Assembly (NCBI GenBank): GCA_965249555.1
Contig: OZ252243.1
Span: forward strand, 1,952,001 to 2,016,000
Origin: Nitrosopumilus sp.
Lineage (GTDB): Archaea > Thermoproteota > Nitrososphaeria > Nitrososphaerales > Nitrosopumilaceae
Direction: 5' to 3'
DNA: 64,000 bases
The notes beneath the pieces are model-generated. The model saw nothing but the letters and a program-made list of their open reading frames with translations. It did no database searches and was not told the origin of the DNA. A program made the translations under genes and the position numbers. Below are positions 15,833 through 27,201 of the stretch, in pieces. How positions within the stretch are numbered: position 1 is the stretch's first letter; each line of letters opens with the position of its first letter.

Positions 15833-15959
15833 AAGCTCCAAAACAATAATGTTATTTTTTTAATAAGTTAAATTCCTAAAAGGTTAGAATAATATCTGGA
15901 TTCTAAACAATAACAACTTGATAGTGAACCTTATAGATCATTAATACTGAAAAAATTAC

Positions 15960-16175
15960 ATGGTAGATCATGTTCATGTTTGGAGAAAAAAATTGAGACT
16001 GCGAGAACTTATGGATATTACAAATCAAGAATTAGAATCAGGCAAAAAAATTACTGTAATTAATGAAATATTAGATATACAAATGCAAAAACGATGGAAC
16101 TTGGTTAGTACTAGAAAACAACACCTTGATGATATAAAGAAAATATTGGCAAATCAATATGTTTTAGTGATTTAA
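15960..16175 (+). CDS. Hypothetical protein
   Basis: 71-aa ORF with ATG and plausible composition. Confidence 0.55.
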   Translation: MVDHVHVWRKKLRLRELMDITNQELESGKKITVINEILDIQMQKRWNLVSTRKQHLDDIKKILANQYVLVI

Positions 16176-16205
16176 AATTTTAATTTCTGGTATCTAAATA
16201 AATTC

Positions 16206-16303
16206 AAAAGATTGAAGTTTTTGGGTTTGTCCTTTACTCTGTCTTGCCATATGCATCGACATGTAACACGACAATAGGATGTTGTGGAATCTTCAATCTT
16301 CGT
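16206..16303 (-). ncRNA. Candidate ~100-nt structured RNA (RNA-A, copy 1)
   Basis: 10-bp closing stem AAGATTGAAG/CTTCAATCTT, internal bubble, irregular apical hairpin; conserved TTTATCA box upstream on the minus strand. Confidence 0.6.
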
Positions 16304-16436
16304 TAATTATATGTTATATTAAATGATAAACTAGATCAACAAAATTATGTATATTTGTACATATTTAACATAAATTATAAACAAATATTAGACTTGTATG
16401 ATATATACTTAAATTTCATTTCTACGTATTTGATAT

Positions 16437-16609
16437 AACGAGGATCTATCAAACTGCTAAGAAAATCCATCAGAATTTGAAGGATTCTAATGGAAAACTT
16501 TGAAGAAGCAGAAAGATAGGGAAAAAGGAATACACAAAAAAAGATGGAAGCATCTAAAATTCAAAAGTGTATTCCAATTAATCCTCGTTTCCTAATTCGA
16601 TATTTTTTT
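16437..16609 (+). ncRNA. Candidate ~170-nt multi-stem RNA (RNA-B, copy 1)
   Basis: P1 AACGAGGA/TCCTCGTT, CTATC/GATAG, CTGCT/AGCAG, GGAATACAC/GTGTATTCC, AGATG-GAAG-CATCT; CTTAAAT 29 nt upstream; T-tract at end. Confidence 0.7.
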
Positions 16610-16943
16610 ACAAATTTGCAACAAATTGATAAATTATGACAGAACCTATCACTATTCCAACAATTGCACCAATAATCATCCCAATCTTTTTGAGTTTTTC
16701 TCTTTTTTCAAATTCAATATTGGCTTTTCTTTTTATTTCTGAGTGATGTTTCTTACAACGGAATTTGCCTTCATATTCCTGAAATCCTTTTCCCCCACAT
16801 TCTTCACATCTTCTTTCATTCGTGGTGGTTTTTTTGAGTTTTTCTTTTTTTACTACCGGTTCTAAATCTATGATCGCCTTTTCTTCATTTAGCATCTTTT
16901 CAGCTTTGTCTTCTGCAGTTCTTTTTTTTGGCTCATCTGTCAT
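16608..16943 (-). CDS. Membrane-anchored zinc-finger protein
   Basis: CEEC...CKKH plus C-terminal hydrophobic helix. Confidence 0.75.
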   Translation of the reverse strand: MTDEPKKRTAEDKAEKMLNEEKAIIDLEPVVKKEKLKKTTTNERRCEECGGKGFQEYEGKFRCKKHHSEIKRKANIEFEKREKLKKIGMIIGAIVGIVIGSVIIYQFVANL

Positions 16944-17241
16944 TAAATCAACCTTGATAGAACTTTTAGTGATTTAAAAATTTTAAAAATCTAAAACTAT
17001 GAAAAGAGTAGTAATCTTTAACTGGAATTTATGATATTTTTTACTAAATGAACAAGACTGAGAAAAATATATCAAATGAGATTATGAAAGAGCATTCCAG
17101 ATTATTAAACGATTTAGATTCTGAAAAAAACTCTCCAATTATACTAGAAACAAAGAATTCGAGTAAAAAATATCCATAACTGTTGGATTTTAATTTGGAT
17201 AATTTATGCTAGATTATCTTGATAATTCTTTCTTAATCTAA

Positions 17242-17508
17242 TCAAGCCATCTGAGCCGGAGCCTGTCCATCATATCCCTGTTTTTTGTGTATAGAGTCAA
17301 TTACTGACCTTGTAAATCTATCAAAGTCTTCATTTTTCATAGAATCAATGACTTCATCTACCGTTTTATTCATGTCAATTTCCTTGCATCTGCGGTCTGC
17401 CTCAGAACAATAAAACTCGATATAACTTTGAATATAATCATATTCTGGTCCTTGAATTCCTATTTCCAACCTTCTTCTACTTAATCTCTCTCTCCAGGTT
17501 TCACTCAT
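17242..17508 (-). CDS. Hypothetical protein
   Basis: 88-aa ORF with ATG and protein-like composition. Confidence 0.7.
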   Translation of the reverse strand: MSETWRERLSRRRLEIGIQGPEYDYIQSYIEFYCSEADRRCKEIDMNKTVDEVIDSMKNEDFDRFTRSVIDSIHKKQGYDGQAPAQMA

Positions 17509-17560
17509 TGAATCACCATTGATACTACTTTATCGCATTTAAAGAAAATTATTTTTTATT

Positions 17561-18226
17561 TTACTTTATAACCTCATAGAACTGATTGAGACGTTGAGTC
17601 AGTAAATCCTTGTAATCTTCCGTTCTTTTTATGAATTCCATTCTTGTATTTTTCTCACTGCTTACTAGAATTACAACTTGTTTTACTTCAATTCCTGTTA
17701 ATTCTTTGAACATTTCTGAATATGCGGCACCTTGAATAAAATGATCAGTCATCCATTCTTCTTGCTGATTACTTCGTTTTGTTTTATAGTCTATTATTGA
17801 TAATTCTCCATTGTATTTGGCAATACAATCAGACATTCCTGCCAGTTTCATTTTTTTGCTATACAGTCTTAATTCAATTCCATGAATGTCATTGATTTTT
17901 TGTAAAAATGGAATTAGATTATTAAAATGAGCAACTGACAATAGTCTGACCTCGTCAGTTTGTGTTATTTCATTTAGGTGATTTTCAATTAATTTATGAG
18001 TTTGAGTACCTATTATTGAAGATTCTTCTGTAATATATTGAGCAGCTATCTCCTGCTCTTTCCAATTTTGTAGGCTTTGTTGTTTTTCAGCAGACATTGT
18101 TTTGTGTAGTATTGTTGTAATTGATGGAAAAATATCCCCATCTGGTGTTTGATAGTAATGTGCATCATCTTTTTCAATTAATTCTGCTTGTTGAAAATTA
18201 ATTGGAATGTGATTAAACATGTGCAT
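17561..18226 (-). CDS. PD-(D/E)XK exonuclease (MGME1/phage exonuclease-like)
   Basis: PSITTIL, GTQTH, LAGMSDCIA...IIDYKT, Q..AY. Confidence 0.85.
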   Translation of the reverse strand: MHMFNHIPINFQQAELIEKDDAHYYQTPDGDIFPSITTILHKTMSAEKQQSLQNWKEQEIAAQYITEESSIIGTQTHKLIENHLNEITQTDEVRLLSVAHFNNLIPFLQKINDIHGIELRLYSKKMKLAGMSDCIAKYNGELSIIDYKTKRSNQQEEWMTDHFIQGAAYSEMFKELTGIEVKQVVILVSSEKNTRMEFIKRTEDYKDLLTQRLNQFYEVIK

Positions 18227-18299
18227 CTTGTAAATTTGTTATTTCAGTGTAATTTTAAACTCTTTATTTCTAATTTGTTAAAATTCAAGTATTCCGATC

Positions 18300-19514
18300 T
18301 TAATTTTCTTTGAATCTAGCAGCTTCATCAGAGCCACCAGTTGCATTACCTTTGCTGTAGGAATGCGCTCCAACTCCTGCCAAACTTCCACCCTTTACAA
18401 TTAGATATTCATCCCGTATTGGTTTGTCATCAAGCCAACACTCCAAAATCTCCCTAACCCCTGATGCATATCTTGTCTGAGCAGAAAGTGATGTTCCAGA
18501 AGTGTGAGGAGTCATGCCATGATTTGGCATTGTTCTCCACGGATGATCCTTTGGTGGGGGTTGTGGAAACCAAACATCCCCTGCATATCCTGCTAATTGT
18601 CCTGTCTCTAGTGCTTTTGTCACAGCATTTCTGTCACAAATTTTCCCACGAGCAGTATTTACTAAATATGCCCCATGTTTCATCTTGCTAATCAATTCTT
18701 CATCAAATAGATTTTCAGTCTCTGGATGAAGCGGTGCATTAATTGTAATTACATCACATACCTTTACCATCTCCTCTACACTTTGGTGAAATGTCAATCC
18801 AAGTTCTTTCTCAGTTTCTTCAGGTAATCTATGTTTATCAAAATAATGAAGCTTGACATCAAATGGTTTCATTCTCTTTAGTACGGCCAATCCTATTCTT
18901 CCCGCAGCTACTGTTCCAACATTCATTCCCTCTACATCGTATGACCTTGATACACAATCCGCAATGTTCCATCCATTTTTGATTACCCAGTTGTATGATG
19001 GGATGTAGTTTCTTACCAATCCTAGGATCATCATTACAACATGTTCTGATACACTGATGCTATTGGAATACGTTACCTCCGTTACTGTAATGTCATTATC
19101 CATCGCTGCTTGCAAGTCTACATGGTCAGATCCAATTCCTGCTGTGATTACCATCTTTAGCTTTGGTGCCTTTGCAATTCTTTGAGCAGTAAGATAAGCT
19201 GGCCAGAAAGGCTGTGATATTGCAATGTCTGTATCTACTAACTCTTTTTCAAATACCGAATTTGGTCCGTCTTTGTCAGATGTTACAACATAAGTGTGTC
19301 CCCGCTCTTCTAAGAATTTTCGTAATCCCAGTTCTCCTGAAACACATCCTAAAAGTTCTCCTGGGTTAAAATCAATTTTTTCTGGAGTAGGTGTACTTTG
19401 GCCACCAGGATAACTTGTGATCTTTGGAATATCTGTTCTTGCATAATTTGGTGGGAACTTGTCTTCTGGGTCATCATATAATACACATAATATCTTTAGA
19501 TTTTCTTTACTCAT
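18300..19514 (-). CDS. fdh: NAD-dependent (metal-independent) formate dehydrogenase
   Basis: LCVLYDDP, SQPFWPAYLT, TAGIGSDHVDL, AAGRIG, GDVWFPQPPPKDHPWR, AQTRYASG, GAHSYSKG; closely matches the Pseudomonas sp. 101-type FDH as recalled. Confidence 0.95.
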   Translation of the reverse strand: MSKENLKILCVLYDDPEDKFPPNYARTDIPKITSYPGGQSTPTPEKIDFNPGELLGCVSGELGLRKFLEERGHTYVVTSDKDGPNSVFEKELVDTDIAISQPFWPAYLTAQRIAKAPKLKMVITAGIGSDHVDLQAAMDNDITVTEVTYSNSISVSEHVVMMILGLVRNYIPSYNWVIKNGWNIADCVSRSYDVEGMNVGTVAAGRIGLAVLKRMKPFDVKLHYFDKHRLPEETEKELGLTFHQSVEEMVKVCDVITINAPLHPETENLFDEELISKMKHGAYLVNTARGKICDRNAVTKALETGQLAGYAGDVWFPQPPPKDHPWRTMPNHGMTPHTSGTSLSAQTRYASGVREILECWLDDKPIRDEYLIVKGGSLAGVGAHSYSKGNATGGSDEAARFKEN

Positions 19515-19639
19515 TTCTCTAGACTTGATGAAATCCTAAACCTGTAAATTAACTTGATCCTCCTAATGAAAAGTTGATTTAGCATATTTTGTATGCCAGA
19601 TTTTTTGTTTTCCAACATGCTTAAGTTCATTTTTTTCTA

Positions 19640-19843
19640 ATGGCATGCATGGATAATCCAACTGAAATCAACTCTGTATATTGGAACGAAAAAAAAAAAT
19701 CATGGGCACACAAGCTGATTCAAGTTGAAGAATATCACGGATTTGAGGAATGTCAGCAATGTCGTAGACCCATGTCCCATAATATCAAAACAGATGGAGA
19801 ATTCAAAGTCGTCTATGTGGAATGTGGATGCTCAAGGCGATAA
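19640..19843 (+). CDS. Small Cys-containing (zinc-ribbon-like) protein
   Basis: CQQC and ECGC motifs; CTTAAG TATA-like box upstream. Confidence 0.7.
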   Translation: MACMDNPTEINSVYWNEKKKSWAHKLIQVEEYHGFEECQQCRRPMSHNIKTDGEFKVVYVECGCSRR

Positions 19844-19983
19844 TCCAATTTCAAGAAATAATGGTGATTCATTAGAGACAGGCATACATTCGGCTGCAAA
19901 GCTTTATGCCAAATTACACCCCACAGAAGAAAATGCAAAAATAAGAACGAATGAATTTAAAATGAAATTGGTAGAATAGAGTC

Positions 19984-20223
19984 ATGTTTTACCCTTTTTC
20001 TCTTGTTAAAGTAGTATTGAAAAATATAGGGTTTGAAATAAAAGAAGATGATGACGGTGTACTGTCATTTATTCACAAAACTACAAACCAAGAAGTGTTA
20101 ATAGGCATAGACAAGGAATTAGGATCAAATTATCTAAGAAATAAAATGCAAGAAATTAATTTACCTTTTGATTATTTTCATCATCTTACAGAGACCGTCA
20201 AAAAAATAAGTGATAATAAATAA
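19984..20223 (+). CDS. Possible HicA-like small protein
   Basis: Pattern LVKVVLKNIGF...F.H......IG..KELG..YLR..M.EI.L resembles the HicA fold; catalytic GSH not evident. Confidence 0.4.
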   Translation: MFYPFSLVKVVLKNIGFEIKEDDDGVLSFIHKTTNQEVLIGIDKELGSNYLRNKMQEINLPFDYFHHLTETVKKISDNK

Positions 20224-20227
20224 AATC

Positions 20228-20542
20228 TCAATCCTTTTCAAATCCTTTACTAACAAAGCCATTTGTTACATGCAAAAATGAGCCTAATCTCATGGCAGCC
20301 TCTTTAGAAGACAGTCTTTTAATGCGATCTTCAAGTTCCTGAATAGTCATTTCTCCTATTAGTTTGGTTTTATCCTCATCATCTCTATGATGAATATCCT
20401 CTAAGATGGTTACTAACTGAGAACGACAAATGTTCATGAGATGTCTCATCAAGATTAAACATAGGTCAGGTACCCCATCTTTAGCAGGTCTTTTAATAAC
20501 AAAATCACCACACAGATGGCAATTTGTTTTAAAATCACTCAT
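20228..20542 (-). CDS. Hypothetical protein with CxxC motif
   Basis: CHLC near the N-terminus. Confidence 0.6.
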   Translation of the reverse strand: MSDFKTNCHLCGDFVIKRPAKDGVPDLCLILMRHLMNICRSQLVTILEDIHHRDDEDKTKLIGEMTIQELEDRIKRLSSKEAAMRLGSFLHVTNGFVSKGFEKD

Positions 20543-20664
20543 GGTGATAATATTATAACCTCATCTGAAAATATGATCTACTTCTAGTCAAAGGGTGGTT
20601 TACTAGTATATCAATTAAAAAATTTCCAACAAGCTTAAATCTTCATGCTCATTCTTGAATTTAA

Positions 20665-21219
20665 ATGGGATTAGACGTTTTTGATGCTATCGCATTAACT
20701 ATTCATGCAAACAACGACGAAATCGTAAGTAAAACAACAATACAGAAATTAATTTACTTTCATACGGTTACAATCAAGAATTTAGACATTTCAAACTATA
20801 CTCATTATTTCTATGGCCCATTTAATCGAGAAGTATCAGCTGCATTAGAAGACATGTCTGAATTTTCATATATTGATCAAAATATTATTTCAGGATACTA
20901 TGAAACTTACAATTACAGGTTAACATATAACGGAATCAAATATGCTGAAACCGCAATGGAGAAATATTCTGATGAATTCAAAACAATTTCTAAAACTATC
21001 GAGATATGTAAAGAATACTGCGAACTAAAACCAACACCACTATCATATGCAGCAAAGGCACACTATATTTTAGCAAACTCAAAAGATCAATTTAAAGACA
21101 AATATTTAGCAGAAGATGTAAAAATAATTGCAAAAGATTTTGATTGGAATATTTCCACAGAAGATGCATTAACTGGACTCGCACTACTTCAAAACCTCAA
21201 CCTTGTCTCTACCTCATAG
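20665..21219 (+). CDS. SocA/Panacea/YwgA-like protein
   Basis: SKTTIQKLIYF and YTHYFYGPF motifs. Confidence 0.75.
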   Translation: MGLDVFDAIALTIHANNDEIVSKTTIQKLIYFHTVTIKNLDISNYTHYFYGPFNREVSAALEDMSEFSYIDQNIISGYYETYNYRLTYNGIKYAETAMEKYSDEFKTISKTIEICKEYCELKPTPLSYAAKAHYILANSKDQFKDKYLAEDVKIIAKDFDWNISTEDALTGLALLQNLNLVSTS

Positions 21220-21376
21220 TTATTTTAGGTCCAAAGCAATCAGAGATCCGCTTTATGGATTCATTGATCTTTCTGAATTAGAAACTAAAGTAATAGATAC
21301 TGAAATTTTTAGAAGGCTGCAGTTTATCAAACAACTTAAAAGACTGAAATCTTCAACAAATCTCCCAAAAGATTGA
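21203..21376 (+). pseudogene. N-terminal fragment of an HD-domain phosphohydrolase (YwfO/SAMHD1-like)
   Basis: Manual translation: MSLPHSYFRSKAIRDPLYGFIDLSELETKVIDTEIFRRLQFIKQL, then similarity is lost near 21337. Confidence 0.8.
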
Positions 21377-21471
21377 TGGGTTTTAGAATCATTTACAATA
21401 ATTCCAATGTTAACAGGCTCGTTTCTTACTGGGTCTGGAATAAATCTTGCAACAACAAAACTATACGTCAT
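21253..21471 (-). pseudogene. Truncated DUF3037-like protein
   Basis: YSFVVARFIPDPVRNEPVNIGII N-terminal signature; the remainder is antisense to the HD fragment. Confidence 0.7.
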
Positions 21472-21550
21472 ATCTGTTACCTTTGATTACCGCCAAGTGG
21501 TAAATGGTCTCACAATTCTGCAAATTCATCAAAACTTTCATAGAAATTTA

Positions 21551-21649
21551 GAAGAGTGAATCTTTTGGAATTGTCCTTTACTCTGTCTTGCTGTATGCAT
21601 AGACATGTAACACGACAATAGGATGTGTGGTGCTAACTTCAATCTTCAT
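21551..21649 (-). ncRNA. Candidate structured RNA-A, copy 2
   Basis: GAAGA.TGAA/TTCA.TCTTC closing stem; apical hairpin TTGTC..TTAC..TGTC...GACA.GTAA...GACAA conserved. Confidence 0.55.
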
Positions 21650-21651
21650 TG

Positions 21652-21722
21652 ATTTTATGTTAAATTGAATGATAAACTAGATCAATCATATTATTTACAT
21701 TTGTAGTAATTTAACATAAAAT
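21652..21722. promoter_or_regulatory. Perfect 15-bp inverted repeat in the divergent promoter region
   Basis: ATTTTATGTTAAATT (21652-21666) / AATTTAACATAAAAT (21708-21722); degenerate equivalent in copy 1. Confidence 0.5.
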
Positions 21723-21784
21723 TATAAACAAATATTAGGATTATTTCAAGAAATACTTAAATCTAATTTCAGCATATATACACT

Positions 21785-21933
21785 GACGAGGAACTATCAG
21801 ACCTGTCGAAATTCAAAGAGAAAACTTTGAGGAGGTAGATAGATAGAAAAAAAGGAAAACACGAAAAAAGATGGAAGCATCTAAAATTCTAACATGTTTT
21901 CCAGTAACCTCGTTTCCTAATTCGTTATTTTTT
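21785..21933 (+). ncRNA. Candidate structured RNA-B, copy 2
   Basis: GACGAGG/CCTCGTT, CTATC/GATAG, ACCT/AGGT, GGAAAACA/TGTTTTCC, AGATG-GAAG-CATCT; CTTAAAT 29 nt upstream. Confidence 0.7.
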
Positions 21934-22402
21934 GACAAACTTATATGAATATATTATAATCATAAATTTTTGTTTAAAGTATCCAATACATTTAATTTCT
22001 TTTCATGCGTATGCTATTCTACACATGTACAAATCAGTGAATCTTCTCGAATACAAATTATATCATAGAAAATGTGATTTATTATTACAAGAAACAGAAA
22101 TTAGATTTGCAGGATTCTTAGACACTATGGGTAATCTCATCGCTGGAGGATTCAGAGAAGGTGTAACACCACTTAATGATGAATCAGAAAGGATCAAACT
22201 TCATATGGAAACTCTTCTACGAGTAAAAACAGAACAAGACTTTGATTATGACTTGGGAACTGTCGAGTACTCTGTTTCACAAAGGAAAAAAGTTATCACA
22301 TTTACTTTTGCATTTGATAGTAAGGTACTATTTGTATCAACAGAAACAAATGTTGAAATCGAAAAGACTGCTCAAAAAATAATAAAAATTTGTAGTATTT
22401 GA
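21932..22402 (+). CDS. DUF6659-like (roadblock/profilin-like) protein; real start probably near 22025
   Basis: EIRFAGFLDTMGNLIAGGFREGVTPL...FDYDLGTVEYSVSQRKKV. Confidence 0.75.
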   Translation: MTNLYEYIIIINFCLKYPIHLISFHAYAILHMYKSVNLLEYKLYHRKCDLLLQETEIRFAGFLDTMGNLIAGGFREGVTPLNDESERIKLHMETLLRVKTEQDFDYDLGTVEYSVSQRKKVITFTFAFDSKVLFVSTETNVEIEKTAQKIIKICSI

Positions 22403-26808: not shown

Positions 26809-27201
26809 TTATGCTAAAGTTGGGTCACGGCTCAGTATGTTTAGTATGTGCTCAACAATCTGTTTTTGACCTCCGCTATGAAGGTCTGTTCGTACTTGAT
26901 CAGAACCCAAACTAACAAAAATTAGATTGTCTTCTCCTAGAGGAAAAGTCATTCTTGTAATCTTTTCAAATGCTGCTATTGCATACAATCCCTTTCCAAT
27001 TTTTGGACTCAATCCCTTTCTTCCTTTCCATGCACTAGCTGCTCTTTTGAGCGAGGATTCAGTCTCTTCTGGAGATAAATAATTTGCAACCTCTGGACGA
27101 TGATTTGTGGCAAGTATATTTCCTTCAATATCTGCAATTATACTGTGTCTGATGTTAGGGTCTGAGTCCATTATCTTCTTTAACAGATTTCGGAAATTCA
27201 T
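26809..27201 (-). CDS. DUF6659-like (roadblock/profilin-like) protein
   Basis: DPNIRHSIIADIEGNI...IGKGLYAIAAFEKITRMTFPL. Confidence 0.75.
   Translation of the reverse strand: MNFRNLLKKIMDSDPNIRHSIIADIEGNILATNHRPEVANYLSPEETESSLKRAASAWKGRKGLSPKIGKGLYAIAAFEKITRMTFPLGEDNLIFVSLGSDQVRTDLHSGGQKQIVEHILNILSRDPTLA

Follow-up and report, generated by a model that had tools for sequence, protein, structure and literature searches.

Two copies of a cassette of about 400 bp, free of open reading frames (ORFs) and present in the same orientation, were found at positions 16195-16609 (copy A) and 21539-21934 (copy B) of the window, that is, the whole 64,000-nt stretch of DNA analysed here (contig OZ252243.1 of the Nitrosopumilus sp. 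assembly GCA_965249555.1, positions 1,952,001-2,016,000 of the forward strand). Each copy consists of a left arm, designated R2 and read on the - strand, an AT-rich spacer of ~125 bp and a right arm, designated R1 and read on the + strand. Sequence comparison with relatives, from which the families, their secondary structures, strands, distribution and synteny have been established, supports R1 and R2 as two new families of structured small RNAs in marine ammonia-oxidising archaea. Our preferred reading, for which we estimate a probability of about 0.72, is that each cassette comprises two stand-alone genes for structured small non-coding RNAs (ncRNAs), which are divergently oriented, share a control region and probably bind protein.

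Two copies of an ORF-free cassette

The arms, as delimited by matches to their covariance models, and the spacers are located as follows:

16195..16314, - strand: copy A R2 gene, covariance-model match of 117.4 bits, E 6.7e-21
16302..16436: copy A spacer, AT-rich promoter/regulatory candidate, based on sequence and conserved blocks
16430..16609, + strand: copy A R1 gene, covariance-model match of 75 bits, E 4e-17
21539..21660, - strand: copy B R2 gene, covariance-model match of 116.5 bits, E 1e-20, aligns to copy A
21648..21784: copy B spacer, promoter/regulatory candidate, based on sequence and conserved blocks
21778..21934, + strand: copy B R1 gene, covariance-model match of 142.6 bits, E 3.2e-36

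The original prediction of two diverged, same-orientation copies was confirmed by alignment and by a DNA search of the whole single-contig 2.23-Mb genome, which gave two cassette matches in all (the query itself at 100% and the other copy at 77% identity, E 1.1e-88). The mean column identity of the two copies in a MAFFT alignment was 86%, with a 21-nt indel located within the right arm, and the covariance models produced two strong matches per arm on the same genome (two for R1 and two for R2). Contigs from four public runs belonging to two studies, none of them on record as RNA, spanned both copies together with their distinct flanks and showed no differences; because they match both copies, the duplication is considered to be real DNA and not an assembly artefact. 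The sequences of the left and the right arm are unrelated and do not form inverted repeats of each other.

No conserved reading frame was found when both copies and their relatives were compared. ORFs of 20-41 aa do occur in both copies, with either the frame or the start codon lost between the copies and in the relatives. Those shared by the copies either diverge in frame within a few residues, such as the one starting with MEASKI (31 vs 25 aa), or have lost the ATG in relatives (GCATC to GTATC on the DNA), and the indels in this place are not multiples of three. A conserved peptide, the absence of which had also been claimed, does not explain the conservation in any of the copies or relatives checked.

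Structure and covariation of the two RNAs

R1 folds into a three-way junction of ~150-170 nt closed by the stem P1 (GACGAGG/CCUCGUU). The arm P2 is extended by P3-P4, the length of which depends on the lineage and which is absent in the genus g38, and the arm P5-P7 carries A-rich internal loops of invariant sequence. In copy A, P1 is formed by 16437-16443 paired with 16583-16589, the conserved tail reads UCCUAAUUCG, and the predicted transcript would run from ~16437 to ~16609. P1 of copy B starts with GACGAGG at 21785-21791 and its transcript is predicted to extend from ~21785 to ~21930. Both right arms are closed by T-tracts, as had been noticed from the sequence: a T7 tract at 16603-16609 in copy A and a T6 tract at 21924-21929 in copy B.

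The R1 model was built on the consensus fold of 12 right arms (alignment A3), copy B among them, which was used in place of an earlier MAFFT alignment of 14 right arms (A2), where the insertion-bearing copy A and its counterpart from genome G007 had been misplaced. The score of copy A below that of copy B is explained by this insertion, a lineage-specific extension of the P3/P4 hairpin, which reaches an even greater length in G007 (whole-cassette identity 88%). Neither copy has lost a helix, and copy A still adopts the family fold; for its right arm, the fold gave z = -4.56 against dinucleotide shuffles, with 0/200 of them as good. Among 47 R1 sequences, 96.3% of the cells were paired and changes on both sides were present in 22 of the 40 pairs; 0/500 shuffles reached any of the five covariation measures, and the slid-partner controls were paired at 42-53%. 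The metagenome sequences, which were outside of the model building, were paired at 96.9%, with both-side changes in 10/40 pairs.

Two weak R1-like matches were recorded in addition. One of them, at C1:1023341-1023456 (+) of the same genome outside the window (21.2 bits, E 0.06), may be a chance match, and the second, located directly upstream of the main R1 in G020 (L014:1362-1488, +; 27.4 bits), may be a decayed tandem copy.

R2 is ~100 nt long and includes a 10-bp closing stem, a variable hairpin and the conserved core GUCGUGUUAC...GUAAAGGAU. The closing stem of copy A (16291-16301 with ~16208-16217) is followed by U-runs on the - strand (CUUUUGAAUUUAUUU). The predicted transcripts would extend from ~16301 down to ~16200 in copy A and from ~21647 down to ~21548 in copy B. 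The fold of the copy A left arm gave z = -3.25 against dinucleotide shuffles (3/200 as good). With the model derived from the opposite strand of 11 left arms, 98.2% of the cells were paired among 45 R2 sequences, with changes on both sides in 16 of the 25 pairs, 0/500 shuffles as good and the slid controls paired at 37-49%. Double changes in such a proportion of pairs in both RNAs would not be expected from promoter DNA.

The strand could be deduced from the kind of mismatch tolerated in the helices: G-U cells outnumbered A-C cells 200 to 34 with R1 read on the + strand and 93 to 4 with R2 read on the - strand, and because of this large excess the two arms are considered to be RNAs of opposite strands. 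Both the structural selection and the opposite-strand transcription postulated for the arms in the original prediction are, therefore, supported, the former by strong covariation across the homologs of R1 and R2 and the latter by the G-U excess in both arms.

Apart from the cassette type, two further R2 subfamilies were encountered. The first, paralogous one has the closing stem GAAAGCUGAC/GUCAGCUUUC (loci L104, L110, L111, L112 and L114, positions 1001 to ~1128), and the other (GAAGACUGA...) is present in 5-7 copies in G097 and G099.

Spacer and predicted promoters

In both copies and on both strands, a TATA-like box was read 29 nt from the closing stem, in agreement with what had been claimed, and two central blocks lie between the outer boxes, as given here for copy A:

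16324-16330, - strand: copy A R2 TATA-like box TTTATCA, 29 nt before the stem edge 16301
16347-16359: copy A central conserved block, ATGTATATTTGTA
16376-16392: copy A second conserved block, TATAAACAAATATTAGA
16408-16414, + strand: copy A R1 TATA-like box CTTAAAT, 29 nt before the closing stem at 16437
21670-21676, - strand: copy B R2 TATA-like box TTTATCA, 29 nt before the stem edge 21647
21756-21762, + strand: copy B R1 TATA-like box CTTAAAT, 29 nt before the closing stem at 21785

The bases between the + strand box and the R1 stem have diverged, which was likewise seen in the alignment of copies A and B. Since the copies are homologous, equal box-to-stem distances within a single genome weigh little, and the conservation of boxes and spacing across other genomes is the stronger evidence. 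Four spacer blocks are conserved in 25 cassettes, including the two TATA-like blocks with the consensus CTTTATTATT on the - strand (R2) and CTTTAAAT on the + strand (R1) and the two central blocks with the consensus ATGTAAATTTGT and TAAATGAATTTTAAGAA. The TTAAAT-type blocks are at least 90% conserved and the bases flanking them are variable. The distance between the R2 hit end and the R1 motif ACGAGG was kept at 122-124 nt in 23 of 24 cassettes, despite an overall cassette identity of ~65-70%.

In archaea, the TATA box is located ~26 nt before the start site and transcription terminates at oligo-T. The tRNA genes of the same genome have (C/T)TTAAAT-like boxes starting ~28-35 nt before the mature 5' end, as judged from an unfiltered ARAGORN list of 56 with doubtful calls included. 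Because the tRNA boxes and the known archaeal TATA layout agree with them, the two outer spacer blocks are credible promoters. A comparison of the spacer with the upstream regions of the signal recognition particle (SRP) RNA and RNase P RNA genes revealed no clear common box. Several entries of this ARAGORN list, obtained without special settings, are odd 'tRNA-Phe/Leu' calls that recur with almost the same upstream region; they may be either false calls or a repeat family. The central blocks, which are kept upstream of R1 even where a protein gene replaces R2 (L007), are probably candidate sites for a regulator.

Distribution and linkage of R1 and R2

A DNA search of 60 relatives recovered full-length cassettes with 64-88% identity in the same genus. 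Of the 150 other genomes scanned in the genus, 63 had a match to the covariance model of R1 and 67 to that of R2; among the high-quality genomes, counting the own one, R1 was detected in 47 of 98. In an even draw from the family, R1 was present in 3 of 27 genera (g1 1/9, g38 7/9, g43 8/9), that is, in two genera besides its own, with as many as four copies in a single g43 genome, and gave 0 matches in the remaining 24 genera of the draw; R2 had weak matches in the genera g25, g38 and g42. Three genomes of this draw (G248, G262 and G263) are flagged as unpublished and were used only in the denominators and in the DUF6659 tally given below. Because strict filters and models from a single genus were used in the scans, missing matches of R1 and R2 mean 'not found' rather than 'absent'. 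In metagenomes, a strict 25-nt pattern selected 52 contigs, of which 51 had an R1 hit and 14 carried an adjacent divergent R2.

The two RNAs are closely linked to each other. Cassette-type R2 (at least 85 bits) was found in 34 other genomes, of which 32 also had R1, and in 31 of these 32 genomes R1 and R2 were divergent neighbours ~115-120 nt apart. In the genus g38, R1 and an R2-like RNA were again divergent, at a distance of ~510 nt, in all six loci read, and this recurrence of the divergent linkage is the best hint that R1 and R2 act together.

The wider interval of one g38 genome contains additional folding segments between R1 and the R2-like RNA. A GC-rich 138-nt segment at L122:1175-1312 (+) ends in a T-run and folds with z = -4.52 (0/200 shuffles as good), and a further GC-rich, strongly folding and T-run-ended segment is located at ~L122:1370-1440. 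Neither of them had a match in Rfam, and they may belong to a cluster of several small-RNA genes.

Comparison with known RNA and element classes

The claim that the arms match no recognised RNA family has stood against Rfam 15: none of its 4227 models matched at gathering score anywhere in the window, and none of the six weak hits obtained at E <= 10 over 15900-22300 was located on either arm. Rfam searches of 12 loci of R2 paralogues and of the g38 locus were also negative, save for chance-level hits elsewhere. The RNase P RNA (RF00373), SRP RNA (RF01857) and 5S rRNA (RF00001) genes were found above the cut-offs elsewhere in the genome (187.6, 101.8 and 76.7 bits, respectively; 5S at C1:608988-609107), with none on the arms, and ARAGORN identified 0 tRNA or tmRNA genes in the window. 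No description of R1 or R2 was met in full-text literature searches or in passages of PMC13475601 and PMC5069720.

Several other classes were tried and rejected. C/D-box small RNAs (sRNAs) do not fit, as neither a C box (RUGAUGA) nor a D box (CUGA) is present in the four RNAs of the window, the combination of a C box within the first 25 nt and a D box within the last 25 nt was absent in all 160 aligned homologues (0/47, 0/45, 0/51 and 0/17), and the lengths are ~100-170 nt compared to the usual 50-70 nt. For H/ACA sRNAs, judged by the ACA expected three nt from the 3' end, this triplet occurred only at internal, non-homologous sites, and the one following the T-run in copy A R1 is absent in copy B. 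Miniature inverted-repeat transposable elements (MITEs) or other small mobile repeats were rejected on the basis of two copies in the own genome, mostly one syntenic copy in the relatives and arms that are not inverted repeats; the multi-copy R2 subfamily in G097 and G099, whose flanks were read at three places, bears on this test. The copies are also unlike attachment-site repeats, given their size of ~400 bp, their identity of 77-86% and no integrase among the ORFs tested.

Genomic context and origin of the duplication

The context was evaluated for 44 of the 47 R1 hits; L045 and L057 were excluded because their contigs are short, as was the second, weak match in L014. Most relatives have a single cassette copy at one syntenic site, usually between a UDG-family gene (upstream in 20/44 loci) and DUF72 (downstream in 12/44 loci). 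A glucose/sorbosone dehydrogenase gene was present at 12/44 loci, 11 times downstream and once upstream. Each of these three names was confirmed on one representative protein.

The own genome deviates from this arrangement. It has no orthologous UDG (the best match is 40% identical over 58 aa, at C1:260194), and what is left of the UDG-family gene is a degenerate 3'-terminal remnant of ~40 nt in the flank of copy B at ~21503-21543: in relatives the gene product ends with ...QWSAVFAKAKKLTK before the stop, and the remnant with ...KWSHNSANSSKLS, also before a stop. In copy A, each arm is directed towards the 3' end of a convergently oriented gene. The features between and directly beside the copies are the following:

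16608..21471, outside the RNA genes: inter-copy stretch of ~5 kb, with a small transmembrane protein, an 88-aa ORF and further ORFs, including small ones
17561-18226, - strand: phage-type PD-(D/E)XK/Cas4-like exonuclease (phrog_298 of PHROGs, E 7e-58)
18300-19514, - strand: 2-hydroxyacid dehydrogenase
20665-21219, + strand: protein resembling the C-terminal part of DarG (PADLOC, E 5.6e-9)
21253-21471, - strand: truncated DUF3037-like ORF of 72 aa, resembling the N-terminus of DUF3037/PDC-M66B, below the Pfam cut-off
21932-22402, + strand: DUF6659 paralogue, directly after copy B

Searches with Pfam, PADLOC and PHROGs detected neither an integrase nor a transposase in the ORFs located between the copies or next to them, several small ORFs being without a family. 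No blastn match to the cassette (distant mode) was obtained in phage records, and three pattern scans of IMG/VR gave 0 matches with strict consensus strings, the first of which fits one loop variant only.

In the cassette tree, in which row L088 (two R2 hits, mis-extracted, with a very long branch) was disregarded, copy B formed a group with the G086 cassette (support 99/97) and copy A was placed next to G007, so that neither of the own copies has the other as its closest relative. Each of them also shares flanking genes with the genome of its tree neighbour. From this we infer that the duplication would represent a side-by-side join of two cassette lineages that had already diverged, each together with its neighbourhood, instead of a local copying event of recent date, the joining having probably occurred by recombination at the cassette.

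DUF6659 genes recur near the RNAs. Besides the one following copy B, another DUF6659 paralogue is located ~5 kb beyond, at 26911-27177 (-) in genome coordinates, and the own genome has eight DUF6659 in total. In seven relatives, the left arm is replaced by a DUF6659 gene, which diverges in orientation from R1, and in the genus g38 the best-scoring DUF6659 gene is located ~2-5.5 kb from the RNA pair. As a partner tracking the distribution of the RNAs DUF6659 was rejected, as it is present in 151/151 genomes of the family draw; because it is universal and multi-copy in these archaea, its nearness to R1 and R2 is a mere lead.

Interpretation

The back-to-back two-RNA module under structural selection, which formed the core of the original prediction, is supported by the covariation, the strand signal and the negative results with Rfam and with ORFs. 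In the mechanism that we propose, R1 and R2 would be transcribed away from each other out of one AT-rich control region of ~125 bp. The predicted start of transcription is the first paired base or a position adjacent to it, because each TATA-like box is placed 29 nt before the closing stem, and both transcripts would end at the T-runs. The promoters, the start and stop points, the co-regulation and the mode of protein binding are all predictions of this model; a regulator bound at the two central spacer blocks would control both RNA genes jointly. The most conserved nucleotides of R1 and R2 are those of internal loops and junctions and the helices covary. The covarying helices, invariant loops and ends locked in a stem and followed by U-runs may point, in a reading that we hold loosely, to stable protein-bound RNAs acting in trans, instead of antisense regulators or leaders of neighbouring genes. 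Mutual pairing of R1 and R2 is disfavoured, because no conserved complementarity of at least 6 nt was found between them in 36 distinct cassettes (column-wise, 6-nt windows, at least 90% pairing). Long duplexes forced by RNAduplex between the full-length R1 and R2 were little better than those of shuffles.

Several points weigh against this reading. Around half of the good genomes of the genus, complete single-contig ones included, have no matches to R1 and R2, so the RNAs must be dispensable. In the metagenome set of R1, one of the five covariation measures did not exceed the shuffles: further pair types numbered 32 compared to a shuffle mean of 33.9, and 496/500 shuffles reached this value. 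The alignments behind the pair counts are biased towards structure, having been fitted to the models, and the sequences are related, so that the shuffle controls overstate the significance; the covariation controls are for both reasons indicative and should not be taken as probabilities. Starts, ends and even the expression of R1 and R2 are deduced from the genome sequences. Finally, the position of the RNAs relative to protein genes may allow a cis-acting role in other contexts: R1 is located just upstream of a same-strand gene in 24/44 loci (DUF72 in 12, glucose/sorbosone dehydrogenase in 11 and DUF6659 in one, copy B), and the paralogous R2 subfamily with the GAAAGCUGAC stem is found ~23 nt upstream of the start codon of DUF72, on the same strand, in 5/5 loci read.

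These positions would suit cis-acting leaders or riboswitch-like elements controlling the downstream gene, for which the layout of both RNAs, a closing stem followed by a U-run, could also be used as an OFF-switch. We nevertheless judge this explanation unlikely. A cis role of copy A is disfavoured, because both its arms face the ends of convergent genes and have no downstream gene to regulate. Over the 44 loci, the downstream family differs among lineages and the next gene is on the other strand in several cases, each arm has a conserved TATA-like box and a T-run of its own, and no riboswitch of Rfam matched; the riboswitch/leader class was, therefore, rejected for the arms. Only the R2 paralogue that precedes DUF72 in other genomes occupies the position typical of a leader.

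It seems quite improbable that one or both copies are decaying relics, that is, intergenic stretches kept by promoter elements of neighbouring genes and without a functional RNA. The patchy occurrence within the genus and the score of copy A R1 far below that of copy B (75 vs 142.6 bits) could be read in this way, but the low score is due to the hairpin extension with the family fold intact, every helix is kept in both copies and the double changes affect 22/40 and 16/25 pairs. Very improbable in our opinion is an importance of the copies as DNA only, as direct repeats at the ends of a mobile or defence island, or as its recombination or attachment sites, with incidental folds: the direct repeats around ~5 kb with the phrog_298 exonuclease, the DarG-like protein and the truncated DUF3037-like ORF, the loss of the preceding UDG except for its tail remnant, and the grouping of each copy, flanks included, with another genome would fit accretion by recombination at the cassette, but most genomes have the single syntenic copy, the compensatory changes and the G-U excess reflect RNA-level selection on opposite strands, the searches for integrases, transposases and phage or IMG/VR matches were negative, and the cassette could act as a recombination hotspot, in the manner of tRNA genes, alongside an RNA function and not in its place. 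The earlier suggestion of an RNA component belonging to a mobile or defence element has, on the same grounds of synteny and of no matches in phage records and IMG/VR, found no support.

Returning to two stand-alone RNA genes per cassette, a more speculative extension can be considered, which we regard as doubtful: R1 and R2 may be subunits of a single machine or circuit specific to marine ammonia-oxidising archaea, such as a co-regulated two-RNA ribonucleoprotein (RNP) or an RNA-based switch, with R2 as the diversifying subunit, possibly one that provides specificity or is guide-like, and with the cassette serving also, as tRNA genes do, as a landing site for islands. Such a two-subunit machine would account for the divergent linkage in two genera and for the spacing held within 1-2 nt. 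The R2 family does vary, with its three subfamilies and up to seven copies per genome.

Relation to known systems and significance

The ammonia oxidisers of this archaeal family rank among the most abundant marine microbes, and, to our knowledge, almost nothing has been known about their ncRNAs. Two structured RNA families with good support come from this locus; covariance models for them are available, their start sites are predicted and their control region is conserved, which makes them directly testable. It is unusual for structured RNAs to be kept as a fixed divergent pair in more than one genus, and this hints that they function together; the locus is at the same time an example of small-RNA genes bordering a variable genomic island.

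Compared to known systems, the trans-acting sRNAs of Methanosarcina and Haloferax act via short single-stranded seeds and are weakly structured. R1 and R2 resemble them in the intergenic position, the length of ~100-200 nt and the presence of an own promoter and oligo-T terminator (predicted in our case), but they are nearly all helical and their conserved unpaired bases are located in internal loops. The minimal R1 of the genus g38 (~110-120 nt) is reminiscent of 5S rRNA, with a helix closing the ends, a three-way junction and two arms, one of which has internal loops; in contrast, similarity in sequence or model is lacking, and RF00001 gave no match on the arms at E <= 10.

Y RNAs, vault RNAs and Sm/Lsm-bound archaeal sRNAs are scaffold RNAs of RNPs with a long terminal stem followed by a U-tail. 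They share with R1 and R2 the ends locked in a 7-10-bp stem plus a U-run, the invariant loops within covarying helices, the dispensability and the lineage specificity. They differ from them in sequence, and in the case of R1 and R2 the binding of protein is a prediction.

Finally, raiA, ROOL, OLE and HEARO are bacterial orphan families of structured ncRNAs which were found by comparative genomics and were not known to have a function at the time of their discovery. Neither these families nor any other in Rfam 15 matched the arms. R1 and R2 are similar to these orphan families in having covariation-supported folds, a lineage-limited distribution and stand-alone genes with a promoter and a terminator (here predicted). 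In contrast to them, R1 and R2 are archaeal, belonging to one family of ammonia-oxidising archaea, are much smaller (~150 and ~100 nt, respectively) and form a fixed divergent pair.

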